Shown here in pieces: positions 6,322 through 63,700 of a DNA stretch of 64,000 bases (its first letter is position 1; every line of letters begins with the position of its first letter). The translations under genes were made by a program, and so were the position numbers. The notes under the pieces are model-generated. The model had not been told where the DNA came from. It ran no database searches and saw nothing but the letters and a program-made list of their open reading frames with translations. The stretch is from Eledone cirrhosa (lineage: Eukaryota). The DNA is taken from positions 350,052,001-350,116,000 of the forward strand of contig OZ024741.1 of NCBI GenBank assembly GCA_964016885.1, read 5' to 3'.

Positions 6322-6606
6322 GTTATTGTTGTCAATGTATTTAATTTTATTCGAATACCCTGCTCTATTTAAAGCTTCATTATAGTATTCAGCCTTATCA
6401 TCAAAAATATTTTTGTTAGCAGAGATGCGTGAAATCCGTTGTTGAACACTATTGACAATAGTGTTCTTAATAGATTTAGGATGATTAGAGTTAAAACTTG
6501 CGTAATTTAGATTTTCGTTAATTTACTCCAGAAGACTGTCGAGTGCTCTGAATCAGTTATAAACATTTATATTTGTTGAATTTCCAACAAATTAAATATT
6601 CCTCTA

Positions 6607-6678
<72 letters not shown>

Positions 6679-6681
<3 letters not shown>

Positions 6682-6925
6682 CTCACTATAAAAGCTTCAC
6701 GGCACAGGCATTGCTTTATATCTGGAGAGATCTCTGCACTTGTCGTCACATGGTACCATGGGCCCAGCACTATGTGACAATAATTGTCACAGGTGTAGTG
6801 TTTGTACCAGAGTTTTCAAGTCGCTGGCTGGATTAAAAAGTCACACTCGTTCAGCGCATCGGTAGGGGTTCTCCTACATGGATATAAAGTAGTGGCCGTA
6901 CTCGAAAACGAGTTGGCAGCCACCA
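6679..6925 (+). mobile_element. Bipartite non-autonomous RTE derivative (family B), 5'-truncated, inside (TA)n
   Basis: Near-identical to 54719-55171 and 59615-60170. Encodes the last C2H2 finger of an RTE ORF (CSVCTRVFKSLAGLKSHTRSAHR*). Confidence 0.8.
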
Positions 6926-31085: not shown

Positions 31086-32835
31086 TGCCCCTGTGGCTAA
31101 TAAAGAATTATTAGCCACAGGGGCACAAAAGAAGGGGACAAATACAAAGGGGGAAGTTTACATACAATAAAAACGTAAAATATTATCACAAATGTAATCT
31201 AAAAATTAGTCCATTTTCCCCAATAGGGGGAGACATTTCATATGGGTAACACATACCCCCGAAAAAAAATGTGCAACCCTCATCTCCAGGAGTACGAAGA
31301 GTTTGTACTCCTTTCCTCTCCTCCTCTTTTTCCTCAACCTACAGGCTGATATAGAGAGAAGGCCCATTCACTCGGGCCATTCTCGCCACTTTCACCCACC
31401 TTTCATAAAACTTGCTGGGGTACAGCACCTCTCTCTCCATCCTGATTCTTCTTCCAAAGTGGCATTTGAAAAAAAGAATCAGTTGTTGGCCGGAGAGAAA
31501 GGTGTCTGACCTCAGCCCTTTCAACCTTGTCAACCATACAACCTCTTTCGCCATAGCTATCACACAAAGGAAAACCGCCTCTCCTTCGTTTTTGAAGGAG
31601 GGTGGCGGTTTGATCATGACAATGGACTCGGTGGTCAACCGGATTGGTCCCACCCGCGACAATAGTCGTTCTACATAGCCCCACAGGTCGGTGACGCCCG
31701 GGCAGTGTATGAATGCGTGCGCGACGGTTTCTTCGTCTCGCACGCACCTCGGAAAGATCTTTTTTGCAGGGTCCCTGCCCGGGCGCCCATGTCTGTAGAG
31801 CTTGTCTCGAACTGGTAGAGCTCCTTGGTAGCACTGCCAGGCCAGGGACTTTTGGAAGTTGTCAATCGGTCCTACCGAACAGACTGGCCAGTTCGTCTTC
31901 CTCTAGGCCTAGAGTTTCACCGAGCACGTCGTCGCACTTGCTGCGGATCAACCCTCTATAGAATGACGAAGTAGAGTCTCCACTGATCGCCGGATCCGCC
32001 TGCCAGAGGGCTGTGAGCGCCTGAGCACATTCGATGTGCCAGTCGCCCATTTTCCTCAGTCTTTGCTTGACCCAGGACTGCAGCTCGGTCAGCGAGACGA
32101 GTCGTGGGAAGGCTCGCCTCACGAACGGGGCCCACACCGGTTGTCCGGTGAGGAATACGTAGAGATGCCGCAGCCTGAGCGTGTGTTTGCGGATCGTCAG
32201 ACACGGCAACCCCAGCCCTCCGTTGGAAGGGCGTTGGCAGCAGATGGATCTTCTCACCAAAGGAGCCCGCCTCTTCCAAAGGAATTGGAAGAGCGCGCGC
32301 TCCATTTTGGCGAGCGTTTTGGCTAGACAAGGCACGACGGTCAAGCGGTAGTAGATGACGGACGCTATAAAAGTGTTCGCCACCTCCGCTCAACCTTTCA
32401 ATGATAGTTTGCACTCGACCCACTTCTGGGTGAGTGCAAACACCTTGGCCGACACCTCGTTCCAGTTCTTCTCCACCTGGAGGTCCGGACCAAACCAGAC
32501 CCCGAGCAGCTTTACTGGTCCTTCCGTCCAGCGTCCGACGACGCCATCGGAAGGCATCGGTTTGCCTCTCCACGATCCGAGTTGCAAACCGATGGACTTG
32601 TCCCGGTTCAGCTTCGCTCCTGTGAAGCTTTCGTATTCCTTCAGTAAGGTGCTGACTTCCTCGATTTGCAAGGCGCTCGACACCACTACTGGCACGTCGT
32701 CGGCGTAGGCCGACGCCGCTTTCCGCAGTCCCGGTTCCAGAGGGATGCCCTGCAATAGCTCCAACTTCCGCAGTAGTGGCTCGGGAGTCAATACGTACAG
32801 AAGGGAGGAGAGAGGGCATCCCTGTCGAATGGATC
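31086..32835 (-). mobile_element. Tx1/L1-clade LINE copy 2 (~1.75 kb, truncated in RT at IRQGCP)
   Basis: Broken ORF2 with AYADD and CCHC; 3' end carries a fold-back; (GATA)n on both sides. Confidence 0.92.
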
Positions 32836-32872
<37 letters not shown>

Positions 32873-32891
32873 TGTAGATAGATAGATAGAT

Positions 32892-35576
32892 ATGTTTCTT
32901 TATTAGCCACAGGGGCACAAAAGAAGGGGACAAATACAAAGGGGGAAGTTTACATACAATAAAAACGTGTAAAATGTTATCACAGATGGAATTTAAAAGT
33001 TAGTCGATTTTCCCCAATAGAGGGAGACAGTTTATATGGGTAACACATACCCCCGAAAAAAATGTGCAACCCTCATCTCCAGGAGTACGAAGAGCTTGTA
33101 CTCCTTTCTTCTCCTCCTCCTTTTCCTCAATCTACAGGCTGATATAGAGAGAAGGCCCATTCACTCGGGCCATTCTCGCCACTTTCACCCACCTTTCATA
33201 AAACTTGCTGGGGTACAGCACCTCTCTCTCCATCCTGATTCTTCTTCCAAAGTGGTATTTGAAAAAAAGAATCAGTTGTTGGCCGGAGAGAAAGGTGTCT
33301 GACCTCAGCCCTTTCAACCTTGTCCACCATACAACCTCTTTCGCCATAGCTATCACACAAAAGAAAACCGCCTCTCCTTCGTTTTTGAAGGAGGGTGGCG
33401 GTTTGATCATGACAATGGACTCGGTGGTCAACTGGATTGGTCCCACCCGCGACAATAGTCGTTCTACATATCCCCACAGGTCAGTGACGCCCGGGCAGTG
33501 TATGAATGCGTGCGCGACGGTTTCTTCGTCTCGCACGCACCTCGGACAGATCTTTTTTGCAGGGTCCCTGCCCGGGCGCCCATGTCTGTAGAGCTTGTCT
33601 CGAACTGGTAGAGCTCCTCGGTAGCACTGCCAGGCCAGGGACTTTTGGAAGTTGTCCATCGGTCCCGGGCGGAAGGTCCTACCGAACAGACTGGCCAGTT
33701 CATCTTCCTCCACGCCTAGAGTTTCACCGAGCGCGTCGTCGCACTTGCTGCGGACCAACCCTCTATAGAATGACGAAGTGGAGTCTCCACTGATCGCCGG
33801 GTCCGCCTGCCAGAGGGCTGTGAGCGCCTGAGCACATTCGATGTGCCAGTCGCCCATTTTCCTCGGTCTCTGCTTGACCCAGGACTGCAGCTCGGTCAGT
33901 GAGACGAGTCGTGGGAAGGCTCGCCTCACGAACGGGGCCCACACCGGTTGTCCGGTGAGGAATACGTAGAGATGCCGCAGCCTGAGCGCGTGTTTGCGCA
34001 TCGTCAACCACGGCATCCCCAGCCCTCCGTTAGAAGGGTGTTGGCAGCAGATGGATCTTCTTACCAAAGGAGCCCGCCTCTTCCAAAGGAATCGGAAGAG
34101 GGCGCGCTCCATTTTGGCGAGCGTTTTGGCTGGACAAGGCACGACGGTCAAGCGGTAGTAGATGGCGGACGCTATAAAAGTGTTCGCCACCTCCGCTCGA
34201 CCTTTCAAGGATAGTTTGCACTCGGCCCACTTCTGGGTGAGTGCAAACACCTTGGCCGTCACTTCGTTCCAGTTCTTCTCCACCTGGAGGTCCGGACCAA
34301 ACCAGACCCCGAGCAGCTTTACCGGTCCTTCCGTCCAGCGTCCGACGACGCCATCGGAAGGCATCGGTCTGCCTCTCCACGATCCGAGTTGCAAACCGAT
34401 GGACTTGTCCCGGTTCAGCTTCGCTCCTGTGAGACTTTCGTATTCCTTTAGTTAGGTGCCGACTTTCTCGATTTGCGAGGCGCTCGACACCATTACTGTC
34501 ACGTCGTCGGCGTAGGCCGACGCCGCTTTCCGCAGTCCCGGTTCCAGAGGGATGCCCTGCAATAGCTCCAGCTTCCGCAGTAGTGGCTCGAGAGTCAGTA
34601 CGTACAGAAGGGAGGAGAGAGGGCATCCCTGTCGAATGGATCGCGTAATATGGAACGGCTCCGAGAGGTAACCGTTCACCTTGACCCTTGAGCAGATGTT
34701 GCTGTTGTGCATTGCAGCAATCCAGCCCCTGAACACGGGTCCGAAGCCTGCCGCCTCGAGCACCGCATCCAGGTAACGATGGTCAACCCTATCGAAAGCC
34801 TTAGACTGATCCAAGTTGATCAGGGCCCCACCGAAGCCGGGTTTACACCCTACCCTCTCTATGATGTATCGCATGAGGTGGAGGTTGTCGTGTATGGACC
34901 TGGTCGGGATCGCGCATGTCTGCGCTTCTCCCACCAGGTTCTTGACGACAAGCGCCAGCCTCTTTGCCAACACCTTGGCCAAAATCTGTAACTCTGTGTT
35001 TAGCAGAGTTATGGGCTGGAAGTTGCCTATGTCATCCCCCTTATTCTCGTCCTTCCTGATTAGTGTGACCACGCCCCCGGTTACAGAACTGGGAATTCTC
35101 CCGTTCTGTTGCCAGTTGTAGTAGACCGCTTCCAGGAGACCGGAGAATAAGTCCGGCATTGCTACGTAAAATTCGTAGGGTAGACCGTCGAGACCTGGAG
35201 ATTTGCGTTTGCCGCATTGGCTCAGCGCGTCCCCTATCTCAGTGGCTGAAATAGGCTTTTCGCAGAACTTTGCCTCGCTGTCCGAGAGTCGCGGCAGGCC
35301 GTCGAGGTATGGATCGAAATCCATAGCCTCTCCCCCCCCCCCCCCCCCCCCCAACAGTTGACAAAGTGCCGCTGAAAAGCCGCACACATCTGCTTCGGCT
35401 CACGTATCACGCGTCCGTTTTGGTCCTTCAAAGACCGAATCGTGGACTTGTTGCCACTTTTTGCCTCCGTCACTCGGGCCCAGCTAACAGCTTTGGCTCC
35501 CTCGTTTTCCAGAGCACGTATTTTGCTTCTGACAACGCAGCCCTCGTGCTTTGCGTCGAAGAACTGGTCCAAGGCC
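32892..35576 (-). mobile_element. Tx1/L1-clade LINE copy 3 (~2.7 kb, truncated between EN and RT)
   Basis: ORFs 34452-35387 (RT: DQSKAFD, IRQGCPLS, AYADD) and 33132-34394 (thumb, CPRC..H..C); 3' UTR nearly identical to copy 1. Confidence 0.93.
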
Positions 35577-35627
<51 letters not shown>

Positions 35628-35628
35628 T

Positions 35629-35674
<46 letters not shown>

Positions 35675-35888
35675 TTCTTTATTTACCATAAAGGCATAAA
35701 AAGAAGGGACAAATACAAAGGGGGAGTTTACATAAAACCGAGTAAAAAGGGTATAAAATGAAAATAATCGAAAACAACCTCAAAAGGGAGGGGACGTGAT
35801 GGGGGTTGCACACATACCCGAAAAAGTGTGCAATCCTTTTCCCGGGGAGCACATGGAGAGGGTGCTCCCTTCTCCTTCACTTCTTTAC

Positions 35889-38800
35889 CTACAGGATGGT
35901 ATACAGAGAAGGCCCATTTACACGAGCCATTCTCGCCACTATCACCCACCTTTCATAAAACTGCCTGTGGCCAAGCACCTCTCTCTCCATTCTTATCCTT
36001 CTTCCGAAGTGATATCGGAAGAAGTAGACCAGACTATGGCCAGAGAGGAAGTTGCCTGACCTCAGACCTTTCAATCGTGTCCACCAAACAACCTCTTTCA
36101 ACATGGCTATTACGCACAGAAAAACCGCCTTTGCTTCCTTTGTGAAGAGGGGAGGCGGCTTGATTGTCATCACGGACTCGGCGGTCAATCGAATCGGCGC
36201 CACCCGCGACAGCAGTCGTTCGGCGTAGCCTCACAGATCAGCCACGCCCGGACATTGCACCAATGCGTGCGCAACGGTTTCTTCGTGACGCACGCATCTA
36301 GGGCAAATCTTTTTCGATGGATCCCTGCCCGGGCGCCCGTGTCTGTAGAGCCTCTCTCGAACGGGTAGAGCCCCCCGGTAGCACTGCCAGGCTAGTGACT
36401 TCTGGAAGTTGTCCATTGGTCCCGGGCTGAAAGTCCTACCGAACAGGCTGGCCAGTTCGTCCTCTTCCATGTACAGCGACTCTCCAAGGGTGTCATCGCC
36501 CCTGCTAGCCACCAGCCCTCTATAGAATGATGAGGTGGATTCTCCACCGATTGCCGGGCCCGCTTGCCAGAGAGCCCTGAGCGCCTGGGCACACTCAGTG
36601 TGCCAGTTTCCTAGTTTTCCGGATCTTTGCTTGACCCAGGACTGCAGCTCGGTGAGCGAGACGAGTCTCGGAAAGGCTCGTTTCACGAACGGAGCCCACA
36701 CCGGTTGACCAGTGAGGAATACCTGTAGGTGCCGTAGCCTTAATGCGTGCCTACGCATCATCAACCACGGCATCCCCAGCCCTCCTTTCGAAGGTTGTTG
36801 GCAGCAGATGGATCTTCTCACCATAGGAGGGCGCTTCTTCCAAAGAAATTGGAAGAGCATGCGTTCCATGGTGGTGAGTGTTTCCTTAGGGCAAGGCACG
36901 ACAGTCAGGCGGTAGTAAGTGACGGACGCTATGTAAATGTTCGCCACCTCCGCCCGACCTTTTAGGGACAGCTTACACTTGGCCCATTTCTGGGTTAGTG
37001 CAAACACCTTGTTCGTAACCTCGTCCCAGTTCTTTTCCACCTGGAGGTCCGGTCCAAACCAGACCCCAAGCAACTTCACCGGGCCCTCCGTCCAGTGTCC
37101 GACGACACCGTCGGGAGGCATCGGTCTGCCTCTCCACGTTCCGAGTTGCAGCCCGATGGATTTTTCCCGGTTCAGTTTCGCTCCTGACAACCTTTCGTAA
37201 TCCTCCAGTAAGGTACCGATCGCCTCGATCTCCGAGTCGGTCGATACCATTACTGTTACGTCATCGGCGTAGGCCGACACCGCTTTGCTCAATCCTGGTT
37301 CCAGGGGGATACCCTGCAACAACTCCAACTTCCTCAGTAAAGGCTCGAGAGTCAATACGTACAGAAGGGAGGAGAGAGGGCACCCCTGTCGAATGGATCG
37401 TGTGATTTCGAACGGCTTCGAAAGGTAGCCGTTCACCTTGATCCTAGAACAGATGTGGTTGCTATGTAAGGCAGTGATCCAGCCTCTGAAAACAGGACCA
37501 AACCCAGCCGCCGCTAGCACCGCATCCAGGTAACCATGGTCGATCCTATCGAATGCCTTAGACTGATCCAAGTTGATCAGGGCCCCACCGAAGCCGGGTT
37601 TGTTGCCAACCCTCTCTATGATGTATCGCATGAGGTAGAGGTTATCGTGAATGGACCTGGATGGGATAGCACATGTCTGCGCATCTCCCACCAGGCCACC
37701 CACGACAAGCGCCAACCTCTTTGCTAACACCTTGGCCAAAATCTTTAACTCTGTGTTTAGCAGGGTTATGGGCCGAAAATTATTTATACTATCCCCCTTG
37801 TTCTCGTCCTTCCTCACCAGCGAGACTACGCCCTTGGCTACAGAACAAGGAATTCTCCCGTTCTGCTGCCAATTGTAGTAGACCGCTTCGAGGAGTTCGG
37901 AGAAGAAGACCGGCATTGCTAAATAAAGTTCGTAAGGTATACCATCGAGACCTGGAGATTTGCGTCTGCTGCATTGGCTCAGCGCATCCCCGATCTCATC
38001 AGCCGAGATTGGTCCCTCGCAGGACTCTGCCTCTTCGCTCGAGAGACGCGGCAGGCCGTCGAGGTATGGACCGAAATCCACGTCCCCGCCCGGACCCTCG
38101 CCTCCCCCGAATAATCGGACAAAGTGCCTTTGAAAGGCCTCGCACATCTGCTTAGGCTCCCGGATCACCCGTCCATCCTCGTCTTGCAAAGACCGGATGG
38201 TGGATCGATTTCCACTCTTAGCTTCTGTTACGCGGGCCCAGCCAACGGCTTTGGCCCCCTCATTACCTAGAGCACGTATTTTACTTCGAATGACGCAGCC
38301 TTCGTGCTTTGCATCGAAAAACTGGCTCAAGGCCGTCCTCGATGCCAGCACTCTGGCCACATCTTCGCTCTTGATTGCCTCTTCTAATTTACCTGTTAAT
38401 TCTTTCTCGTTTCTATTCCTATCGGCAGCTAACATCTTGCTATAACTTATTGATTCTGTTCTAATCTCTCTTTTGAGAGATGCCCACCATCGGTTGTTGA
38501 CGATTGCACCCATTAACCTCTCCTTAACTAATCTGCTAATCCGGTTTCTGTAAGTCTCTTTTGCCGGTAAAGACAAATTAAGTTTCCAGTAACTGGGACC
38601 CTGTTTATGTGTTTTCTCAAGATTGACTACGCAGGTCACTAATTTGTGATCCGTATAGCCAACCGTGAGCATTTCTGGACAGCTTAATATGTCCCTATCT
38701 TTACTTCTAACTAAGAATCTATCTAAGTACGATCTAGATTGACCACGGTGGTTCGTCCAAGTCCAGGTTGGCACAGTTGGAAAATCTAGTCGATATCTAT

Positions 38801-39326
38801 CGACCAAGTTAAAACGGTCGAGTAACCCCTTGAGGCTGTTACATCCTCCTCTATTAGGACATGCTCCTGCATAGTCCCAACGTGCATCTAGGATGTCATT
38901 CCAATCCCCCGCTAGAAGCAGGGAACGCGACGTTCCCAGAAAAGTCTCCAGACGCTGGAAGAAGTTGGGTCGTTCAGCTCCGAAAGGGGAGTAGACGGCG
39001 ACCAGTCTCAAGGCCGCACCTTCACTACTGTCAACGTCTAGCACCAACAAACGACCCTCCGGGTCCGAGTGAACAACCTGTACGGCGAGACCCAGGTGTT
39101 TTTCCAGCAGTACGACAACCCCACCCCCACCTCCAGGTTGACAGAGAGATGCATGCACCTCAAAGTCATCGAAGGTAGGGGCCAGCTGCCGCACGACGCT
39201 GATCCGAGTCTCACAGATAACCATTACATTTATACCACGTGACCTGAGGTCATTTAGAAGCTTTGCTTGCTTCCAAGTTGAGCCCAGGCCACGTGCATTC
39301 AAACATCCTACTCTTAACACATCCAT
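35889..39326 (-). pseudogene. Tx1 ORF2 (APE endonuclease-RT-CCHC), 1145 codons with one internal TGA at 36231-36233
   Basis: LNARGL, ICETR, VYSP, GDWND, YLDRF, YTDHK; FRPITLLN, DQSKAFD, IRQGCPLS, AYADD; CPRC-x8-H-x4-C. The stop falls where copies 2 and 3 have Trp (DLWGY), and ORF 35889-36203 continues in frame. Confidence 0.93.
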
Positions 39327-41271
39327 GTGGGCGGCAAAGCCTTTCTTCTTCCCGGGGTTCGGGTCGCACGACTTCCATGGGGTCGGGGGTGTTGGGTGAA
39401 GGAGTGTCTTGTGGTGGTGTGAGGTCGTCAGTGTGTGGTGGGGTTGGGGTGTTTGGAGTTGTGTTGGGGAGGGGAAGGGGAGGGGGAAAGCTTTTTAGTA
39501 GGACGCGGTTTATGGGTTTGACAGAGGGTGGTCCTACGTCCTCCTTAAAATCCTTTTTTAGTTTTTGGTAGAGGTTCATTGGGATCTTTATTAATTTTAA
39601 ATGTGGGTAGTTTTCTGAAGAAACAAAGTTTACACCTTCGGTTTGTACCGAAGGGTTATTGCTTATGAGTTCATTTAATTTATTATTGTTTCTGTTGATG
39701 TAAGTATAGTGTAATGTCTTTTTTTCGGATGGTGTGAGTGTTTCGAAGAGGGGAGGGGCAGGTTTGGTTTTGTTTGTTGCTGGAGGGGTGTTTTGTGTTT
39801 TGTTGGATTGTGTTGACATTTGGGTAGGGGTTGTTTGGCCTTGTGTGTTTTGCACATGTTTTCTTTTTTTCCTTTTAATCTGTCTGAAGGACTCCGTTTC
39901 TTCCTTCGAATTCGTTGGGTTATCTTCAGTGTTGGAGGGAAGAGGTATGTTTGCTGGTAATGTTTCCGGGTTGGTTTTCTTTGTGGGGGAGATGGATGTC
40001 ACTATGTTAGACTGTGCTGTGTGTTGTAGCTGCGGTGGTTGTGTTGTTTTATTGAGTGAGGGGTTGGGTGGGACTGTGTTTTGTTTTTGGGTAATGTGTT
40101 GTGACTGTTTGTGTTGTGGTGGTGGTGTAGTTTTACTGAGGGACGGGTTGGGTGGGACTGAGTTTTGTTGTTTGTTTATCTGTTGTGGTGGTGGTGGAGC
40201 TGGTGTTGGTAGCAGGGTTTTCTTCTTGTTGAGTTGGGGACAAGCCGCCTTCAGGTGCCCTCTGCCTGCACAGATATGACAGGACGGCCTTCTCCCCTCC
40301 ACGCTAATGTTTATATACCCGTGGCCCTCTAATAGGATTCTGTCGGGTATTTGGGCAATGCGTTCAGGCTTCATTTGCACTACAAGTTCTATACCTGTTC
40401 CACTGAACGCATTGCCTGTGGTTTTCCCAATGGAAATCACGTTGTCATTCGCTGGATCGATGAAGCCAGCTATGAACCAGCAGTAGTCCACATCTGGCAT
40501 ATGTAGTCCGCATCCAGCCATATGCGCTGAGTTCTTTTACCCATATAAGATGGATAAAAGGTAAAATTTGTCGAACGAATCGGCGACAAAGCATATTTTT
40601 TTGCCGCCGATTCGTTCTTCATAATAATCGCTAGGCTTCCATACAGTCTGTCTCTTCTTATGAAAGTGGTTTCATTAAGTACTTCTGTAAGTACTGCTTT
40701 GATTTCTGTTTGTGTTGGTTGTTGAGGTTTTTTAGAAATGTTGATGGTGCGGAAAACGACCGTCCGACTTTCAATGTCTTTGGTGAGTTCTTGAGGCATT
40801 TTTACCGATAAAATACCATTTTCCCCTTGAGTTATGTATTGTTTGGCGTTTTTAATTCTTTGTGCCACATCTGAAATATTTTCAGGTATATATGTCAAAG
40901 ATTTCTTTGTTGTTTGTGCAAATGAAATATTATTGGTGTTGACTTTGTCGTCTGCTTTGCTTTCTGTTATGATGTTGTTTTCAAATGTTATTTTTGTGTT
41001 TGTTGTGTCTTTGTTTGTGGTATTAATATTGTCATGCAATTTTTCAAACTTTTTTTTGTTGTTGGAATCAATGTCCAGATTTGTGTTTTCGTCATTTTTC
41101 TCTGCACATTCGTCTGTTTTTATTTTATTTTTTCTTTCCTTCTCTATGACGTTAGTTGGGAAGGAAGGGGGTACTAAAGCGTGCGAGCTTACAACTCTTA
41201 CCGCTCTCCCCCCCCCCCCCCCCCCCCCCACCACCACCACCACCACTATTTTCGTTAGCTTCGTTTAACAT
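39250..41271 (-). pseudogene. Tx1 ORF1 (zinc-knuckle nucleic-acid-binding protein), frameshifted
   Basis: CHICAGRGHLKAAC = CX2CX4HX4C followed by a Pro/Thr/Gln-rich region. Split into 40470-41246 and 39250-40521. Likely ATG at 41271, ahead of a poly-G run. Homologous to 60730-61422. Confidence 0.8.
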
Positions 41272-47706: not shown

Positions 47707-48180
47707 CTAGGGCGGGTAAAATTCCCGAGATCCATGGACGAGTTCTCTCCAGCTGTCTGTGTCCCTCATTATCGCTGCCATGTCCTGCGTCTCCAACAGA
47801 CCAGTGTCTGTCCTTAGGGCATCAACATATGTTAATCTCGGTCTTCCTCTTCCAGTGTGTCCATGCAGAGGCTCCCACAGTAGCACTGAGTGCAGTGTCA
47901 ACTCTGGATGTCGGTGAACATGTCCAGCTAACCTCAGTATCTTCTGTGTCACTTTTACGCTGACTTTTGGGAGGCTCCCGTACAGCTCTGAGTTCTTCAT
48001 CCTCAGTGTATACTGATTAATGTTCAAAACCATCCTCGGCATTCTCGTGTAGCACCCATCCACCATCTGAGTGAGTTTCTTGGTCAGTGTCCAAGACTCA
48101 GACCCGTACAGCAGACTCCACTACAGCAACGAAGAGGCGGATCTTCAGGTCTTTTCGAAGGTCCGACTTCCACACCGATC
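47707..48180 (-). pseudogene. RTE/RTEX-like LINE ORF C-terminal fragment
   Basis: LYGSESWTLT..DGCYTRM..LRLAGHVHRH..VLLWEP.HG..GRGRPRLTYVD..SWR. Confidence 0.75.
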
Positions 48181-48212: not shown

Positions 48213-48561
48213 TGCACGAGGACATAGAAATAATCGGGCTGGACACCCGATCACGCAGTTAAGCCACTGGGAGTGAAGGACTCCTAGGCTTTGTCAGGGC
48301 ATTCTTCTAGGAGAAGGCAACTCAGGAAACTGGGATAATTCCGACATAAAACCTGCGGCTCAGTAGTTACCGATGATGTTGATCTTTTCTTCTTTTCGGG
48401 TTATAGCTACTGTCGTTCAGAGAGTGGGATTGGCTCAGTGCACAGTCTTTCTTCACTTTTAAAAAATATCTTCACACACAGGCATTGCATGATAGAATTA
48501 ATTAATAATTATTAATAATGTTATATCGGGCAATGGCCATACTCGATAACGAGGTGGGAGT

Positions 48562-48565
<4 letters not shown>
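48213..48565 (+). mobile_element. Bipartite non-autonomous RTE derivative (family A)
   Basis: 48213-48520 is the reverse complement of the RTE 5' UTR (53715-54014), joined directly to the RTE 3' terminus (cf. 49790-49830); the ORF is absent. Confidence 0.85.
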
Positions 48566-48621
<56 letters not shown>

Positions 48622-48989
48622 GTGTACACGAACACATACATATATATGTGTGTATGTGTGTGTGGGTGTTTGTGTGTGTGTGTACGTTTGTGTGTGTGTG
48701 TGTGTGTGTGTGCGTGTGTGCGTGTGTGTGTGTGAGAGAGAGAGAGAGTCCCAGGTTCAATTTTGGGTAACCACAGTTACTAAGGTACTCATTACATTAT
48801 TAGAGTGTAAACATAATGTTTAATATAAAAATGGCTTCTACAAGACTAGAACTGTTTCATTCAAAAAAATCATCACGAAAGCGTTTCCTGAAATATACCC
48901 CTGCGATATTTTATTTTATCAGTGAAAATAGAGTCCTTCTTCTCTGTCTTTAACTTTAGGATAGTAGCCCAAGAAGAAGACAGCTTCTC

Positions 48990-49260
48990 TATGGCTCTGA
49001 AAATAAAAGCTGCCACTAAATTAAAACACAACCTGCCTGATATTGTTGTTTGGGACCACAAATTGAAAACGTGCTCTGTTGTAGAAATCAGCTGCCCACT
49101 TGATGTCAACGTTGTAAGAAAAATACAAGAGAAGGAGGACATCTACGGACCATTGATGAGGAGTTTGCAGATCCAGTATCCAAGATACACCTTCAGCTTC
49201 ATACCCATCATTATTGGAGATACATGTTATATACCAACCCGCTTGGACCAAAGTATAACA
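48990..49260 (+). pseudogene. Restriction-like endonuclease fragment of an RLE-type LINE (R4/HERO/NeSL-like)
   Basis: KHNLPDIVVWD..CSVVEISCP..RKIQEKEDIY..L..IPIIIG matches the (R)PD..E..K..Y RLE pattern. Confidence 0.75.
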
Positions 49261-49470
49261 AATGGCTGCGATAGCTGGCGTCTTCAAAATTTGCAAAACA
49301 TTCTTGCGATTCAAGGGATGACAATTTCTTTTCTTTTACAACCTTGCCGCCAGGAAGGTGGCCGGACAAAAATGTACTCGAAATTAAAAGAAAGAGAAAC
49401 ATACATACATACATACATACATACATACATACATACATACATACATACATACATACATACATACATACAT

Positions 49471-49620
49471 GGTGGCTGCCAACTCGTTTTCGAGTACGGT
49501 CACTACTTTATATCCATGTAGGAGAACTCCTACCGATGCGCTGAACGAGTGTGAATTTTTAGTCCAGCCAGCGACTTGAAAACTCTGGTACAAACACTAC
49601 ACTTGTGACAATTATTGACA
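49471..49620 (-). mobile_element. Family B RTE derivative, 3' 150 bp, inside (TACA)n
   Basis: Near-identical to the other family B copies; (TACA)n at 49399-49470 and 49620-49789. Confidence 0.85.
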
Positions 49621-49789
49621 TACATACATGCATACATACATACATACATACATGCATACATACATACATACATACATACATACATACATACATACATACA
49701 TGCATGCATACATACATACATACATACATACATACATACATACATACATACATACATACATACATGCATACATATATACATACATACAT

Positions 49790-49844
49790 GATGGCTGCCC
49801 CCTCGTTATCGAGTATGGCCATTGCACGAGGAGAGAAAAAAAAA

Positions 49845-49880
<36 letters not shown>

Positions 49881-49964
49881 AATAAGAAAGAAAATAAAAA
49901 TTAAAAAAATAAAATATATATATATATATACATACACACACACACACACACATACATTAATAAC

Positions 49965-49996
<32 letters not shown>

Positions 49997-52900
49997 CAAT
50001 AATAATAACGACAACAACAATAATAATATACATATACATATATATGTACACATACACGCACACACATAAGCATATCTATACACACGCACACACACGATAG
50101 CAACTAACAGCGCTGCGATCGAATGTGGCTTTTTAGCCCAGCCAATGATCTAAAATGTCTTGCACAGAGTCGGCAACCAAAACATTCACTGGGAATAGTT
50201 GGCTGTGGATGGAGTTCGTGTACTTTTGCATGTCGCTTGAGCCCTCCTGCTGATTTACATTCTCTACCACATGTTTGGCAAGCATGATGAGTAGCATCTC
50301 CAACAGCAGCCTGGTAGTCAACCACTGGTCTTACTTTATGACTGCGAAGATGACTTTCGAGTCCAGCTTTGCTTAGGCAGAGTTTCGCACAGACGCTGCA
50401 TGTCAGCACCATAGCAGGACCCTCGCCGTCTGGAAGTGCAACAGCAATGCCCTTCCTCACATCCCGCTTTACTTTCTCGTATGCGATTCGAGATGCCTCA
50501 AAGGCAACTTTTCCCTCATATACAGTCTTTCTCCATTTATTACGATCAGCAGCAATATTCTCCCATGTATCAGCAGAGATGTTAGCGTCTTTCAGAGAGG
50601 CTTTCAAGGAATCCTTATACCTCTTTTTTGGTTTATGTGGCGGTCGTTTTCCTTTAACCAACTCTCCATAAAAGAGTTGTTTTGGTATTCTAGAATCCTT
50701 CATCCTGGCAAGGTGACCACTCCAACGGAGTCGTTGCTTAAGCACAAGAGCTTCTATACTGTCACACATAGAGCTTTCCAAAATCTCAACATCACTGATG
50801 TGGTTCCTCCAGTGAACGCCATGGATCCGTTTGAGACACATCTGATGGAAACGCTCCAATTGCTTAAGGTGGTGTCGATATGTGACCCAGGTCTCGCAGG
50901 CATAAAGAAGACAAGAGAGCACACATGCCCTGTACACCTTTACCTTTGTCCTCCTGCATATGTCTCGCCGACCCCAGAGTCGCCTTTCTAGCTTTCCGAA
51001 AGCATCACTTGCTTTCCTAATCCTAAGTGAGATTTCACTGTCAAGGTTGCTGTATCGATTGACAGTGCTTCCCAGGTAGACAAACTGATCAACCACTCCA
51101 AGTCGTTTGCCAGACACATAGATGTTTGGTTCAGTGTACTGCTTACCAGGAGCAGGTTGGTACATGACGACGGTTTTCTTGAGACTGACAGTCAATCCTA
51201 GGCCAATGCAAGCGTCAGAAAATGCATTCAAAATGTGCTGCATATCACTCTCTGTGTGCGCTACAAGATCGCAATCATCTGCATACAAGAGGTCTCTTAT
51301 GATTGATATAAATACTTTTGTCTTCGCAGCAAAGCGCCTGATGTTAAATATGCTGCCTGAGGTTCGATATCGGATGTAAACACCATGCTCGCAATTCCTG
51401 AATGCAATACAGAAAACCATTGCAAAATATATGGTAAACAGGGTCGGTGCTGGAATATCCCCCTGTTTCACTCCATTTTTTACTGAGATAGGCTCCGACA
51501 TGTTACCTCCAACATTAACCCAAGCCTTCATGTCGTCATGGAAAGACCTAACTAAAGCAAGGAACTTATCAGGGCAACCAAGTTTCTGGAGAACCTTCCA
51601 TAATGCATCTCTGTTAACAGTATCGAAAGCTTTTGTCAGATCGACAAAAACCTGATACAGATCCAAGCCTTGTTCCATGCACTTCTCCTGGAGCTGTCTA
51701 GCTGAGAAGATCATATCAGTAGTGCCGCGTCCAGCACGAAAACCAGATTGACTTTCAGGAAGAACACAATCTGCAATGTGTGTCAGCAGACGGTCCAGAA
51801 GCACCCTACATAAAACTTTCCCTACGACAGAAAGCAATGATATACCTCTGTAGTTCCCACAATCATTCATGTTACCCTTTCCCTTGTACAAGACCACCAT
51901 TACTGCATCTCTCCAGTCCTCAGGTACGGATTCATTAGCCCATATCCTGCCAAACAAAGAGTGAAGATGCTGCAGGAGTCTCTCACCACCATATTGTAGG
52001 AGCTCAGCATGTATGCTATCCATACCAGGAGATCTTCCACTGTTCAGCTTCGAAATAGCCACTGCAACCTCCACAGGCGTCGGAGGTTCTGCGAGAGCTA
52101 CTTTCACAGGACTTTCTGGAATGAGATTGAGGAAATCTTCACTGACGACAGACGGCTGATTCAAAAAATCATCAAAGTGCTCTCGCCACCTTCGTAGAAT
52201 TCCTTGTGAGTCACGAAGAAGTTCTTTGCCATCCTTGCTGCGAAGCGGTGTCACCAAAGAAGAAGACGGTCCATAAACCTCACGCAAGAGACTGTACAAC
52301 AGCTTTGTGTTATTGGAATCTGACGCAGTTTGTATCTCACCAGCCTTCTCACTCCACCACTGATCCTTCATCTGAGAAAGACTCCGCCTAACACGTGATT
52401 TTATATCCCTGAGTTCCTCGTGCAACGTATTCCTCTCCTGTGGTTTTGCCGTCAAGTAGCGTGACAGAGCACGCCTCTTATCAGCCAACAAGTCTTCTAT
52501 ATGTACATCATTCTCATTAAACCAGTCCTGATGTTTTCTCTGCACCAATCCCAGAACACGCCTGCCTACATCATAAACCGACTTTTTAAGGGTCGGCCAA
52601 TCCTCACCAAGATTTGCAGCCTGCATCTCTTCTTCCAATGTCCTCTTCACATTTTTATCATTAAGACGAGCAGCATTCAATCTTTTGGGCAGGGCAATAC
52701 CAGGAGCCCGGATTTTACGTTTAGTGATTAGTTTCACTTTTTCGCGTACCAGGCGGTGGTCCGTCCAGCACTCAGCTCCACGAAGAGCACGAACACACTG
52801 CACATCCTGTCTGTCACGCATCCTGACTAGGACGTAGTCCAAAAGATGCCATTCCTTAGATGCAGGATGCATCCATGTGGTCTTGAATTTGTTCTTTTGT

Positions 52901-54014
52901 TGGAACATGGTGTTGGTAACACACAGATCCAGCTCCTCACACATCTGCAGCAGGAGCATACCATTGTTGTTACACTTTCCCACCCCATGCCTTCCAATTA
53001 CATTCCATGTGTTAAAATCCCTACCCACGCTAGCATTAAAGTCACCAAGCACGATGACTTTGTCTGCCTGAGGGATATTTCTTAAAACACCTTTCAAGGC
53101 ATGGTAAAAGGACACTTTTTCTTCATCGACAGAATTCATAGTTGGAGCATACACACTCACCAGGGTAGCATATCTTCCTTTGTCCAGCGGAACTATCATG
53201 GACATAAGACGCTCACTAATCCCTACTGGGAATTCTTCTAATTTATTCACCAGTACAGTTTTAACAGCAAATCCTACCCCAGCCTCTCTTCTGGTTCCTT
53301 CATCTCTTCCTTTCCAGAAGAATGTATATTCTCCACAACATTCCGTAAGATGACCATCTCCAGCTAACCTCGTCTCAGATAAAGCCACGATGTCAAGATC
53401 GTAACGTCGAAGCTCCTTTGCAACAAGAGCGGTCCTTCGTTCAGGACGCTCCAAGGAATCCCTGTCAAGCAGCGTCCGTACGTTCCAGCAGCCAAGATTA
53501 AATGCCTTGTTTGGCTCTATTACAATGGCACGATGACGAGCGGGCCCAGGCTGTGATAACCTGGGGCCCCTGCCCTTATTGCCAATTATCTTTTTTGTTC
53601 CAGAACCTAAATTGCCAATTATCTCTTTTATATTGTTCTGGAACATTATTGAATTGGAAAAAAAAAAAAAGTAATAATAATAGTAATAATAATAATAATA
53701 ATAATAATAGTACACTATTAATAATTATTAATGCACTCGTGCAATGCCTGTGCGTGACGAATATTTTTAAAGTGAGGAAAGACTGTGCACTGAGCCAATC
53801 CCACTCTCTGAGCGACAGTAGCTATAACCCGAAAAGAAGAAAAGATCAACATCATCGGTAACTACTGAGCCGCAGGTTTTATGTCGGAGTTGACCCAGTT
53901 TCCTGAGATGCCTTCTCCTAAAAGAGTGCCCTGACAAGGGCTAGGGGTTCTTCACTCCCAGTGGCTTAACTGCGCGATCTGGCATGCAGCCCGATTATTT
54001 CTATGTCCCCGCGC
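49790..54014 (-). mobile_element. Full-length RTE-clade LINE
   Basis: 5' UTR 54014-53715, single ORF, microsatellite-filled 3' UTR, and terminus CTCGTGCAATGGCCATACTCGATAACGAGGGGGCAGCCATC followed by (ATGT)n. Ends defined by the match to 48213-48565. Confidence 0.88.
50104..53646 (-). CDS. RTE ORF: APE endonuclease + reverse transcriptase + three C-terminal C2H2-type zinc fingers, 1180 aa, uninterrupted
   Basis: First ATG at 53646. WNVRTL, LSETR, VYAPT, GDFNA, LLDYV, WTDHR; YRGISLLS, QSGFR, FVDLTKAFD, GVKQG, LYADD; CSVC-x12-HLRSH, CQTC-x12-HAKVH, CRLC-x12-HIRSQRC. Confidence 0.95.
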   Translation of the reverse strand: MFQNNIKEIIGNLGSGTKKIIGNKGRGPRLSQPGPARHRAIVIEPNKAFNLGCWNVRTLLDRDSLERPERRTALVAKELRRYDLDIVALSETRLAGDGHLTECCGEYTFFWKGRDEGTRREAGVGFAVKTVLVNKLEEFPVGISERLMSMIVPLDKGRYATLVSVYAPTMNSVDEEKVSFYHALKGVLRNIPQADKVIVLGDFNASVGRDFNTWNVIGRHGVGKCNNNGMLLLQMCEELDLCVTNTMFQQKNKFKTTWMHPASKEWHLLDYVLVRMRDRQDVQCVRALRGAECWTDHRLVREKVKLITKRKIRAPGIALPKRLNAARLNDKNVKRTLEEEMQAANLGEDWPTLKKSVYDVGRRVLGLVQRKHQDWFNENDVHIEDLLADKRRALSRYLTAKPQERNTLHEELRDIKSRVRRSLSQMKDQWWSEKAGEIQTASDSNNTKLLYSLLREVYGPSSSLVTPLRSKDGKELLRDSQGILRRWREHFDDFLNQPSVVSEDFLNLIPESPVKVALAEPPTPVEVAVAISKLNSGRSPGMDSIHAELLQYGGERLLQHLHSLFGRIWANESVPEDWRDAVMVVLYKGKGNMNDCGNYRGISLLSVVGKVLCRVLLDRLLTHIADCVLPESQSGFRAGRGTTDMIFSARQLQEKCMEQGLDLYQVFVDLTKAFDTVNRDALWKVLQKLGCPDKFLALVRSFHDDMKAWVNVGGNMSEPISVKNGVKQGDIPAPTLFTIYFAMVFCIAFRNCEHGVYIRYRTSGSIFNIRRFAAKTKVFISIIRDLLYADDCDLVAHTESDMQHILNAFSDACIGLGLTVSLKKTVVMYQPAPGKQYTEPNIYVSGKRLGVVDQFVYLGSTVNRYSNLDSEISLRIRKASDAFGKLERRLWGRRDICRRTKVKVYRACVLSCLLYACETWVTYRHHLKQLERFHQMCLKRIHGVHWRNHISDVEILESSMCDSIEALVLKQRLRWSGHLARMKDSRIPKQLFYGELVKGKRPPHKPKKRYKDSLKASLKDANISADTWENIAADRNKWRKTVYEGKVAFEASRIAYEKVKRDVRKGIAVALPDGEGPAMVLTCSVCAKLCLSKAGLESHLRSHKVRPVVDYQAAVGDATHHACQTCGRECKSAGGLKRHAKVHELHPQPTIPSECFGCRLCARHFRSLAGLKSHIRSQRC

Positions 54015-54015
54015 A

Positions 54016-54046
<31 letters not shown>

Positions 54047-54718
54047 CCTCACTTATTGACACTTATACGTACGACATACACACACGCGCATACATATGCG
54101 CGCGCACACACGCATACACACGCGCGCGCACAGCAACACTCATACATACAAACAAACACACACACGCTACTCACTTACACACACACATATATATATATAT
54201 ATATATTACCGTCATTACTGATACAAGATTACAAGATTATCTCAACTGTTGACTTTCAAGAGTTTGTATAGTTGAAGCCGATCGTATTACAGTCCAGTAT
54301 TACTATAATTGCTTTGCAGCATAGAGTTATGGCTCTCCACGCTCTGAGCTTAAATCCCGCCGAGGTCAACCCCGCCTTTCTTCCCCACGGACTCAACAAA
54401 AGAGAGTACCAGTGATGCGCTGGCCAGTCGCTGGATCCGTGCCAAAAGCAGAAAAATTATTATTAAAGTTGTTTTCTTAAAGCCCGGTCGCTGGTGATGG
54501 TGATGGCGGCGGTGGTGGCGGTGGTGGTGGTGGTGGTGGCAGTTGATGTTGTTGTTGTTGGTGTGTTGTTGTGTGCGTGTGTGTGTGTGTTTTGTTATTT
54601 TGAGGGGTTTTTTGTTTGTTTGTTATACATACATACATACATACATACATACATACTTACATACATGCATACATACATACATACATACATACATACATAC
54701 ATACATACATACATACAT

Positions 54719-55171
54719 GGTGGTGGCTGCCAACTCGTTTTCGAGTACGGCCACTACTTTATATCCATGTAGGAGAACCCCTATCGATGCGCTGAACGAG
54801 TGTGACTTTTTAGTCCAGCCAGCGACTTGAAAACTCTGGTACAAACATGACACCTGTGACAATTATTGACACATAGTGCTGGGCCCATGGTACCATGTGA
54901 CGACAAGTGCAGAGAGATCTCCAGATATAAAGCAATGCCTGTGCCGTGAAGCTTTTATAGTGAGCAAAGGCACTGCACAAAGCCAGTCCCACTCTCTTAA
55001 CCAAGATGATATTTACCAAAAAGAAGAACAAGTCAACATCATTGGATACCATCAGGGTTGCAGGTGTTATATCAGAGTTTTCCTTCTCCTAGAATTCTGC
55101 CTTGACAAAGGCTAAGGGGTCATCTCTCCCGGTGATTTTGGATGGCCATTGATTCTTAAGAGCTCCTTTGC
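54719..55171 (-). mobile_element. Family B bipartite RTE derivative inside (TACA)n
   Basis: RTE-type 5' UTR segment, last zinc finger and 3' end; (TACA)n on both sides. Confidence 0.88.
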
Positions 55172-59406: not shown

Positions 59407-59614
59407 TCTGTTTGCATGCCTGTTTACATGCCTACACAAGAGCAAGAATGATGAGGTCATTCTACTGACATGGCTTTAAAGAGGCTGTTTGCATAATTGC
59501 AAATGAATAAAATATTATTATTGATATTCGAAAAACTCAGATTACATTTATTGTATTCAGCCATGTAGAGCGATAAACTATTTGTTATATATATATGTGT
59601 GTACATACATACAT

Positions 59615-60170
59615 GGTGGCTGCCAACTCGTTTTCGAGTACGGCCACTACTTTATATCCATGTAGGAGAACCCCTACCGATGCGCTGAACGAGTGTGACT
59701 TTTTAGTCCAGCCAGCGACTTGAAAACTCTGGTACAAACACTACACTTGTGACAATTATTGACACATAGTGCTGGGCCCATGGTACCATGTGACAACAAG
59801 TGCAGAGAGCAATGCCTGTGCCATGAAGCTTTTATAGTGAGCAAAGGCACTGCACAAAGCCAGTACCACTCTCTTAACCAAGATGATATTTACCAAAAAG
59901 AAGAACAAGTCAACATCATTGGATACCATCAGGGTTGCAGGTTATATATCAGAGTTTTCCATCTCCTAGAATTCTGCCTTGACAAAGTCTAAAGGGTCAA
60001 CTCTCCCGGTGATTTTGGATGGCCATTGACTCTTAAGAGCTCCTTTGCCCTTTGACAGGTTTTGTTTTTAGTTCTGCAGGATGTCCAAAGTCACCCTCCT
60101 CACCAAGAAACCTTGGTGGGGTTGCCAGTTTAGTCGCCAACGACCCGACCATGGGATAGGTTGTACTAGA
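59615..60170 (-). mobile_element. Family B bipartite RTE derivative, longest copy (~555 bp)
   Basis: Includes the 5' head; TACA repeats on both sides; small deletion near 59809. Confidence 0.88.
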
Positions 60171-60739: not shown

Positions 60740-63700
60740 GCGGGGAAAAAATTGCAAAGGTCAAGGTAACCCAGGTCCTGCCCTACGTACCCGTGCCTTG
60801 GCTGGTCGTGTCTGTTCTAGCGGGCATCGAAGATAAAACAACCATTCTGCAGGTACAGAAGTTGGGGAGAGAGGACTGGTCCGGTATTGGAATGGAGATG
60901 CTCATCCAAACCGACCAGGACTGCATCAGCGCTATACCCGACGTAATAGACCTCGGGAATGGCTCCCAACTTCCCATATCTGTTGAAGGAAGGCGCCCAA
61001 AGTGCTTCAACTGTGGATCAAAGTCTCACCTCAAGGCTTTCTGCCCACAGAAAATAACAAAGGCCAAGGTCACCCTCCTTCCAACGCCGAAACCGCTGCC
61101 ATCAGAAACAGAGCAGTCAGCTTCTGCAGAGAATAGGAAGACAACGTCCATGGCACTCACACCAAAGCCACGGACAACAAAAACAGCGACGGAAGCTGCA
61201 GCAACAGAAACAGTTGCGCTAGCTGCACCTGTGCCAAGAACAGCAAAGCAGGCTCCACCACCACTACCAACAACAACAACACAAAAGACAAATGAGAGGG
61301 TAGAACTCATACCCCTCCCCGACCTCTCACGCTCGGACATGGAGTATGAGGCGGCTGAGGAGTGGAAAACGGTTGTTAACAACAAAAAAACAAACGAAAA
61401 AATACCACAGCTCCTCCCCTAAAAGCGAAGGCAAAGAAAGAAGGATAAAGACTGCAAGGATACTTGCAGCAACACCACCAAAAATCACCATCACCACTAC
61501 AGTATCACCACCAACAACAACCACACCACCACCAGCATCACCAAAAACACCAACATCACAAACACAACGAAGCACACATACCCAACAGCAACAATAAGAA
61601 AACAGCAACAAAACCACTCCTCCCCCAAAAAGTACACAGCCATAAACATTGCACACCAAGGACTAATGGAATACATAAAACAGCACACCAATATTTCAGA
61701 CGTAAATTACTACACACCACCAACACCAAGAACATTACCAAAAAATATTAACATTGTTGAAATTGAACTCGAAAGTTACAAACAACTGACACAAAAATTC
61801 CCCAACTGTGTTGGGGATTTCAGGGGACCACTCTCCAAGAGAATCTACAAAGATATCGTCTTGGAGACACCCATGACCAACCGAGGGGAGGGTTCTACTG
61901 TCCCTTCCGCACACGATCAAGGTAAGTGATCCTTTCTCACTTGCCCCGTTCCTCATCCAACATGGCCGTACTTAGAATAGGCAGCATAAATGTACGTGGC
62001 CTGGGGTCATCTTGGAACCAGGGTCACCTGCTCAACGACCTCAGGTCACTAAACATAGATGTGGTGGCCATCAGCGAGAACAGAATCTCCGAAGCACGAG
62101 CCTTCGCACCGATCTTCGGCGGCTACGATGTATACGCATCTCCCAGCCGTCCAGGATCGGGGGGGGGGGGAGGGGTTGCCGTCCTTTTTCGGAGAGACTT
62201 GGATCTCGTCATACGGGCCATCTTCCTGGACCTAGAAGGTAAGTCGGTGGTGCTGGACGTGACCGGCAGCGAAGGCAAAGCTTTCAGGCAGGTAGTGGTC
62301 TATGCCCCAACATGCTCAGGACGGCCAGATTTCTTCAGACGTCTGGAGACCTTTCTTGGAACGTCCCACTCTTTAGTGTTAGTGGCGACTGGAACTGTAT
62401 CTTAGATGCACGCTGGGATTATGTGGGGCTAGTAGACAGGGCAGGAGGGTGTAAAAGCCTCAACAACCTGCTCAGACGTTTTGAACTGGCTGACAGGTAT
62501 AGACTGGATTATCCGAATGTGCCAATGTGGACATGGGCAAACCGCATCGAGTCATCCAGATCGTATTTAGATAGGGTATTACGTAGGGAAACAGATAAGG
62601 CTAGTGTAGGTTGTCCACAATTTAAAGTAGTCGACTACACGGACCACAAATGCCTGACCTGTGAAGTTGACTTAGATAGACTCCATAGGCAAGGGCCCGG
62701 TTACTGGAAACTGAACGCGTCTTTCCCGGCGGGAAAATCTTACAGAGACCGGATTAGCGAATTAGTTAAGCTTGCGTTGACGGGTACGATCGTCAACAAC
62801 AGGTGGTCGTTTAACCTAAAAAGGGCTATTAGAGTAGAATCGATAAGGTTTAGCAAGGGAGTAGTGATAGAGGAAAATAGAGTAGAGGAAGAGTTAGTTA
62901 GAAAGCTAGAAGAGGCGTTTAGGACAGGCATCGCAACCGACGTGCTTGCGGCAAGATTGGCACTCGACCAATTCTTCAACGCAAAGCATGAAAGCTGCGT
63001 TGTCAGAGCTAGAGCGCGTGCTCTAAGACATGGGGGGGGGACGAAAGCCGTTCAATGGGCCCGGGTGGTGGAGGCGTGACGTGGCAACAAGTCCACAATT
63101 CGGTCTTTGCCTGATTAAAACGGGTGCATGTTGCTCGAACCCGAGCAGATGTGTGCGGATTTTCAACAGCACTTTGCTCAATTGTTCGGGAGAGGCGGCG
63201 GGCCGGATCGGAGTATGGACTTCGGTGCATACCTCGACGGACTGCCGCGGCTCTCGACGAGAGCGATAACAGCAGATGAAATACGGGAAGCGATGTCTGA
63301 CTGCACGTGGGGTAAATCACCAGCTTTGGATGGCCTGCCCTACGAGCTTTATGCGTATATGCCAGACTTGTTCGGCGACCTCTTGGCAGATGTCTACTGC
63401 AACTGGGAATGCTCCCGTTCTGCAGAACGGGAGCATTCCCAGTTTTGTGAGCCGGGGAGCGGTGGCGCTGCTAAGAAAAGACCCGAACAAGACGTTATAG
63501 ACAACTTCAGGCCCATAACTCTGCTAAACGCAGAGTTTAAGATTTTGGCCAAGGTGTTAGCAAAGAGATTGGCGCTTGTTGTCGGTGATCTGGTGGGAGA
63601 GGCACAGACATGAGCCATTCCGGACAGATCCATCCATGACAACCTCCATCTCATGCGATACATCATAGAGAGGGTGGTTAAGGAACATGGCACAGGTGGG

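Follow-up and report, generated by a model that had tools for sequence, protein, structure and literature searches.

Complementarity between the 5' untranslated region (UTR) and the 3' end is conserved among retrotransposons of the RTE type, although the sequences that pair are not. The case was noticed in a 64,000-nucleotide stretch of the genome of Eledone cirrhosa (assembly GCA_964016885.1, contig OZ024741.1, positions 350,052,001 to 350,116,000 of the forward strand), here called the window. The window carries an autonomous RTE-type long interspersed nuclear element (LINE), family A, and short derivatives named mini-A and mini-B. In each of them a 5' arm can pair with a 3' arm that lies just ahead of a terminal hairpin. 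Comparison of sequences strongly supports the conservation of this covarying complementarity well beyond the two families. What the pairing does is less certain. We lean, slightly, towards a helix that joins the two RNA ends into a composite 5' and 3' signal used by the RTE protein in template selection.

In family A the arms form 11 Watson-Crick pairs. In family B they form 14 pairs including two G·U. The arm sequences, coordinates and G·U count given in the initial annotation proved exact on recheck. That annotation spoke of two RTE families, which stands for A as an autonomous element, whereas B has been seen as a mini-element only. An autonomous family-B parent was not found, although the search used one guessed codon pattern and returned only two ordinary minis, and the B arms are thus known only about 170 nt apart. 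Over the 11 pairs that can be compared between A and B, four are changed on both sides and two on one side, the latter giving G·U. Pair 11 also differs on both sides between mini-A (U-A) and full A (G-C). A perfect 11-bp match is rare by chance, arising once in 19,306 draws of random 40-nt and 35-nt windows from the open reading frame (ORF). A CUCG-AWAA-CGAG hairpin follows the arms in all six 3' ends in the window, as had been claimed for every copy, with none expected by chance.

Covariation was also tested in more distant elements. The best 80 of 421 metagenome loci were taken together with 4 of 35 loci from a genome collection, and both ends are present in 12 of these 84. The 5' window scored for pairing was 40 nt long and began 15 nt into a CAC..TAA anchor, and the 3' window was the 35 nt that precede the terminal hairpin. 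These windows were fixed from the geometry of A and B after a first inspection by eye. The register of L084 was set by hand, and the hairpin of L081 was corrected between the first test and the later one. L117, L121 and L128, which have no recognisable 5' UTR, lay outside the tests, as did the closest protein families, P0001 and P0002. With these definitions 11 RTE relatives from metagenomes, at 41-54% protein identity and with unrelated arm sequences, pair in the register of A and B.

A first swap test used eight relatives, and for the six independent ones the true assignment was the best of 720 on two scores. Extended to nine independent families with 41-54% protein identity, pairing of each 5' window with its own 3' window was the best of 362,880 assignments in an exact permutation. 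Mean duplex energy over 13 elements was -24.8 kcal/mol for cognate and -13.0 kcal/mol for swapped windows. Against shuffles of their own 3' windows (500 each), 12 of the 13 did better at p <0.05. When the 5' window was slid over 23 offsets there was a single peak, at the predicted site. L091 had been omitted from the first test (a stop codon is read through) and was later found to pair at -34.3 kcal/mol. L087 and L103 form a separate branch in the tree and lack the anchor; with windows placed by a motif chosen by eye, they ranked 1 and 2 of 86. The initial annotation would have been refuted by a lack of significant covariation across families, and the covariation found is significant.

The geometry is also constant. 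The core helix sits at a fixed register, about 5-7 nt ahead of the terminal hairpin, and this spacing suggests that a single composite junction forms where priming takes place. The 5' arm had been placed at the end of the 5' UTR. In family A the ORF starts 90 nt downstream of the arm. The usual position is mid-UTR, with the arm about 200-420 nt upstream of the first matched codon in the relatives, in which the 3' arm often reaches the stop codon. L081-L102 have a second structured-looking domain between arm and ORF, about 150 nt before the ORF, which consists of GAGCAG...CTGCTC followed by a GGGCTAGAAAAGGTGCCC-like stretch. Family A is without the GAGCAG...CTGCTC domain, which may bear on the start of translation.

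Several other sources yielded nothing of use. Viral contigs matched no relatives, eukaryotic contaminants in five prokaryote assemblies held no copy with both ends, and contigs of four sequencing runs aligned to mini-A gave no usable covariation. In run X14, aligned to L002 with a loose end behind 1752, another organism has the same 5' module and after it a third arm variant, whose 3' partner was not seen. For a fourth family, D, the 5' arm was predicted beforehand, and its own 5' module turned out to be absent in 20 of 20 copies retrieved.

Published consensus sequences point the same way. These pairings were judged by eye without script scoring, so selection by eye is possible. In the part of Fig. 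S1 of Kojima 2018 (PMC5786205) examined, the six autonomous RTEs with both pieces printed all pair at the matching place. BovB pairs ACCCCATGAA with TTCATGGGGT (10 bp), RTE-3_AMi forms 11 bp with two G·U, and RTE-1_PSi forms 10 bp, of which one is G·U, with one pair altered on both sides relative to RTE-3_AMi. Shorter matches occur in RTE1_LA (8 bp), RTE-11_AMi (7+5 bp) and RTE-4_PPo (6 bp). Both full hagfish RTEs pair as well: RTE-2_EBu has a perfect 9-bp pairing, with the SINE1-1_EBu junction inside it, and RTE-4_EBu has 7 bp. Among 14 short interspersed nuclear elements (SINEs) of the RTE5'-RTE3' type, a stem around the junction has at least 6 bp in six and 4-5 bp in six, and is unclear in HaSE1 and HaSE3. 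In platypus MonoRep87B, 9 bp pair perfectly at the register known from the window. The seven non-Watson-Crick positions that were read in the printed consensus sequences are all sense-strand G·U. Separately, the MonoRep87A/B tail, labelled unknown in the available text of Kojima 2018 (PMC5786205), matches the 3' ends of L083 (4537-4590) and L092. Judged by these matches, MonoRep87A/B look like ordinary bipartite RTE SINEs.

How do the short derivatives in the window fit in? The window copies, 353 nt for mini-A and 452 nt for mini-B, are both 5'-truncated, and the full units measure about 620 nt (A) and about 611 nt (B). The 350-nt family A RNA of the initial annotation is therefore not a complete unit. 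Mini-A consists of the two ends of A without the ORF, with 89% and 90% identity to those ends, and its deletion junction does lie in an AT-rich loop between the arms, as had been said. The 5' part of mini-B is 69% like A, and the last zinc finger of its parent is kept. The heads of full mini-A and mini-B are about 85% alike and differ from the head of autonomous A, yet all three share a module in which a GAGAGUGG...CACU hairpin is followed by a short linker, with CAGG at its end, and then by the 5' arm. To the eye, the family A module resembles those of RTE-3_AMi and RTE-1_PSi.

Both minis have amplified as units with a fixed junction. For mini-B there are 20,985 exact arm matches genome-wide, and all 30 best-scoring loci have both arms and 14 pairs without a mismatch. 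For mini-A there are 3,096 matches, some of them passengers in a larger repeat. The mini-A arms had been called imperfect. This is true of the window copy, with 10 Watson-Crick pairs, one G·U and one mismatch, but not in general: among 30 matches taken in genome order and blind to the arms, the 12-bp helix has no mismatch in 16, one in 10 and more in 4. One mini-B copy at 59.6 kb has lost half of its 5' arm, and the initial annotation had raised the question of whether this variant amplified. It has not, with one exact genomic match against 20,985 for the intact arm. A B-5'/A-3' chimera pattern gave no matches, an outcome that says little, since such recombinants may be rare. No tRNA-, 5S- or 7SL-type head was matched in Rfam for mini-B or the window region, a search that included no dedicated tRNA scan. 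Mini-A copies L006 and L208 have their head and body in opposite orientations, as in twin priming. What looked like a U·G subfamily of mini-A that had amplified was dropped, since the same larger repeat carries its copies.

These observations can be assembled into a mechanism. The helix would form in sense RNA and dock the 5' module, with its conserved hairpin, next to the tail and the terminal hairpin. The RTE protein would then bind this junction before target-primed reverse transcription, so that good templates would be RNAs with both parts. Deletions that break inside the loop would retain the signal as a local hairpin and could amplify, giving rise to bipartite minis and SINEs. The turnover of the entire arm sequence with pairing kept argues for selection on pairing in autonomous elements. 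Compensatory arm changes are also seen in mini-A relative to A, Bov-A2 relative to BovB and SINE2_Gav relative to RTE-11_AMi (the last two judged by eye). That non-coding minis and tRNA-headed SINEs have retained the pairing, with additional compensatory changes, points to a role as RNA recognised in trans rather than in transcription or translation. By eye, the published tRNA-headed SINEs keep the 5' piece up to the arm, and this counts for a composite signal because they need neither the LINE promoter nor translation. Such a signal is the likely explanation for the retention of both ends in short derivatives. The initial annotation had proposed just such a cis-signal. Its basis, a conserved and covarying complementarity, stands, and we infer from it the helix in vivo and its reading by the protein. 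It is, in our judgement, an evenly balanced question whether a genome-cyclisation helix is at work across most of the RTE clade, with BovB among its users, and unites the 5' UTR module and the 3' hairpin over about 3.5 kb into a single RNA element that licenses target-primed reverse transcription.

This is an attractive scheme, but a number of observations do not fit it well. The minimum-energy fold of full-length A lacks the helix. The full 611-nt mini-B fold contains it in two of four copies, and in the other two it is within 1.9-2.9 kcal. Shorter RNAs behave better, with a predicted helix probability of 0.96-1.0 in the 280-nt 3' part of mini-B and of 0.9-1.0 at every position but the base pair in mini-A. 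The full-length fold also pairs the 3' arm with sequence at 54015, a match that was set aside, being absent in B and not at the true 5' end. Nor is there help from strand asymmetry. Counts from single genomic copies show no excess of G·U over A·C (7 against 14, with 207 against 306 in swapped pairs); decay after insertion could blur this count, which lends no support. The antisense duplex is equally stable. L082 does not differ significantly from its own-window shuffles (p 0.15), and L086 has neither anchor nor pairing signal. In a scan of up to 900 nt made without the anchor only one of 12 elements beat all 25 shuffles, as the helix does not have the length to be conspicuous unless its position is given. 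Perhaps this shortness is also why the pairing is easily overlooked. In the same genome the distant family C (23-32% identity) was examined for end pairing and none of significance was found, with 15 of 60 shuffles as good. Pair 11 is lost in 31 of 39 family A copies with an intact ORF, leaving 10 bp with one G·U; this distal pair is thus dispensable. Finally, plant Au-like SINEs reportedly share the RTE 3' region, and the accessible text makes no mention of a 5' piece (PMC6007223).

What if the helix serves the autonomous element itself, in translation or RNA stability? In this scenario terminating ribosomes would melt the loop and new protein would be passed to its own 3' end, with the minis as mere hitchhikers. 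In 8 of 11 relatives the 35-nt 3' window does include the stop codon, in L084 and L085 the final codons are part of the core helix, and RTE RNAs have microsatellite ends rather than poly(A). However, the family A arm lies about 275 nt past the stop codon, and untranslated minis and SINEs (the latter judged by eye) keep both arms with compensatory changes of their own. We regard this role as unlikely. Somewhat more doubtful is the idea that the helix mainly juxtaposes the ends so that reverse transcriptase jumps the loop, which would set the junction sites of minis that no longer need it afterwards. Junctions do fall inside the loop in mini-A and, by eye, in most SINEs of the published figures consulted, and template jumps are documented for R2 in the part of that report available (PMC3414825). 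This leaves without account the pairing kept in autonomous families through full sequence turnover, and the 3' breakpoint of mini-B is about 150 nt off the arm. The only arm-less variant tested was not amplified, which as a single case is a weak argument. Guiding of jumps as a side effect is compatible with a composite signal.

A role late in integration, in cDNA or second-strand synthesis rather than in template selection, would agree with the neutral outcome of the single-copy strand test, but it seems improbable. The non-Watson-Crick positions in the consensus sequences (as read by eye), in the intact A subfamily and also in family B are sense-strand G·U, the distance of the 5' arm from the 5' end is 270 nt to >1 kb, and 5'-truncated copies ending short of the arm did integrate. 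Could the signal simply come from chance complementarity or the choice of windows? The windows were fixed after inspection, manual choices went into the register of L084 and the anchor of L087/L103, and the published elements were checked by eye. Permutation, shuffle and offset controls argue against this, and so does the anchor-free scan, in which the best helix falls on the arm in 8 of 12 elements. Chance is very improbable as the source.

Long-range end pairing is already established for Ty1, whereas the usual picture of how LINEs recognise their template is of a local signal at the 3' end. The available account of Ty1 CYC5/CYC3 (PMC7969010) describes a similar 5'-3' pairing in retrotransposon RNA, kept in the terminal regions that a minimal element requires. 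However, Ty1 is a long terminal repeat (LTR) element primed by tRNA, whereas here the element is non-LTR, the 3' arm is beside the priming hairpin, and arm sequences turn over between families. Complementary covarying ends are thus shared with Ty1 and the LTR/tRNA-primed anatomy is not, so that the comparison concerns the way of working only. The 3' stem-loops of stringent LINEs and of their SINEs, plant RTE/Au-like SINEs among them (PMC6007223, PMC3747384), are like the terminal hairpin in preceding a microsatellite tail and in being thought to be read by the LINE protein. As described in the parts seen, those signals are local, unlike the adjacent helix here, half of which comes from about 3.5-3.9 kb upstream. 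The R2 short internally deleted elements (SIDEs; PMC3414825) are likewise non-LTR derivatives with both ends. According to the available text their 5' part is kept for a ribozyme and the parts are drawn as separate folds. Here an Rfam scan of mini-B and the window region matched no ribozyme or other relevant family.

Bipartite RTE derivatives and RTE-mobilised SINEs have been described (PMC5786205, PMC7245038, PMC4844689), and in the parts of these reports available they consist, like the minis here, of a 5' UTR piece and a 3' end with the ORF deleted. WALLSI, MonoRep87, RTE-3_AMi and RTE-1_PSi have, by eye, the same 5' module motif in the consensus parts seen. Pairing between the parts is not described in the available texts. 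Kojima 2018 (PMC5786205) states that such derivatives arise 'for unknown reasons', and neither 'stem' nor 'palindrome' occurs in the text available. More generally, no statement of 5'-3' pairing in RTE elements was found in a partial view of the literature that excluded key older papers and patents. A covarying long-range helix would extend end-to-end pairing as known from Ty1 to non-LTR elements. If true, it would provide a check for full-length RNA and a long-sought reason for bipartite RTE SINEs. It would also offer a direct test of a question in the accessible part of Kojima 2018 (PMC5786205), why few LINE clades yield bipartite derivatives (Bov-A, AfroSINE, Mar-1, AviRTE SINEs). There is a practical side. 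According to the portion of the report seen, RTE-1_MD is in development as an RNA-only gene writer, with a template that has both UTRs and was improved by screening (PMC13708176). The pairing rule, if true, would tell which bases must match in such templates.

The features of the window on which this account is built are collected below.

Table 1. RTE family A, its derivatives and those of family B in the window.
Feature	Position	Strand	Basis
Autonomous RTE-type LINE family A, copy truncated within long 5' extension	49790..54620	-	ORF and 5' extension common to other copies
Single ORF, 1180 aa: APE endonuclease, reverse transcriptase, three C2H2-type fingers	50104..53646	-	ORF list, Pfam
The 5' module's GAGAGUGG...CACU hairpin (conserved), serving as anchor ahead of 5' arm	53769..53809	-	Predicted folds, motif in relatives
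Family A 5' arm (53746-53736 pairs with 49830-49820)	53736..53746	-	Sequence check
Family A 3' arm, partner 3.9 kb away	49820..49830	-	Sequence check
Terminal CUCG-AUAA-CGAG hairpin and 3' end, then (ATGT)n tail	49790..49813	-	Sequence
5' extension of autonomous A, unrelated to mini-element heads	54016..54620	-	Comparison with other copies
Mini-A, 5'-truncated bipartite; arms 48483-48494 and 48524-48535, junction in AT-rich loop, hairpin 48542-48553	48213..48565	+	Sequence comparison
Mini-B, 5'-truncated bipartite; arms 54937-54924 and 54765-54752, hairpin 54745-54734	54720..55171	-	Sequence comparison
Remnant of the ORF of B's parent (last zinc finger, stop codon), inside loop	54781..54912	-	Translation
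Mini-B copy, truncated shortly ahead of the 5' arm; arms at 6709-6722 and 6881-6894	6679..6925	+	Sequence check
Mini-B copy, 16-nt deletion removing half of 5' arm; single genomic occurrence	59614..60170	-	Sequence and genome match count
Mini-B 3' fragment without 5' arm (5'-truncated insertion)	49470..49620	-	Sequence check

Family A has the organisation of the RTE clade, one ORF in which an APE endonuclease precedes a reverse transcriptase, and Pfam gave no match to an RNase H domain in it. The 3' tails are microsatellites, (ATGT)n or (AT)n, instead of poly(A). Target-site duplications were looked for and could not be resolved because the flanks are microsatellite. An extension shared with other copies places the 5' end of the window's autonomous copy at about 54620 and not at 54015. 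In autonomous A a microsatellite-rich 5' extension of >1.1 kb replaces the head common to mini-A and mini-B, and this unrelated extension looks like 5' switching. The 3.0-Gb genome has many near-identical family A copies, and 39 among the matches listed have an unbroken ORF. The repeat content gives an octopod-like impression. The 39 copies are the best matches to one foreign protein, so they represent one subfamily and not a random sample. Both arms are present in 34 of them, two are truncated before the 5' arm, and in three the 3' end is out of range. Family A is a relative of RTE-2_OV of Octopus vulgaris (PMC9115989) and not the same family. As far as the available text describes it, RTE-2_OV is also a single-ORF RTE with a C2H2 finger and a microsatellite-rich 3' UTR, but its ORF has 1109 aa against 1180 here, and one published primer has three mismatches and another is unmatched.

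Other repeats were noted in passing. A fragment of the family C LINE (window 47707-48120, minus strand; L229-L236) belongs to an active-looking family with intact 1056-aa frames in many copies, and a motif in its 5' region resembles the start of the Ceph-SINE RTE part as seen in Kojima 2018 (PMC5786205). L286-L335 represent a repeat of >4 kb (732 first-look candidates) in which a dead 5'-truncated family D RTE and mini-A are passengers. The idea that mini-A itself carries family D as a passenger was rejected, as flanks are shared on both sides and both ride in the larger repeat. Several endonuclease-reverse transcriptase frames, of which one measures 1087 aa, belong to another type of LINE and have ORF1-like frames upstream; they lie at 36231-39494, 31339-35779 (minus strand) and 61926-63613 (plus strand). 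Two frames at 5513-6522 (minus strand) resemble the end of a Penelope-type reverse transcriptase and a GIY-YIG endonuclease.

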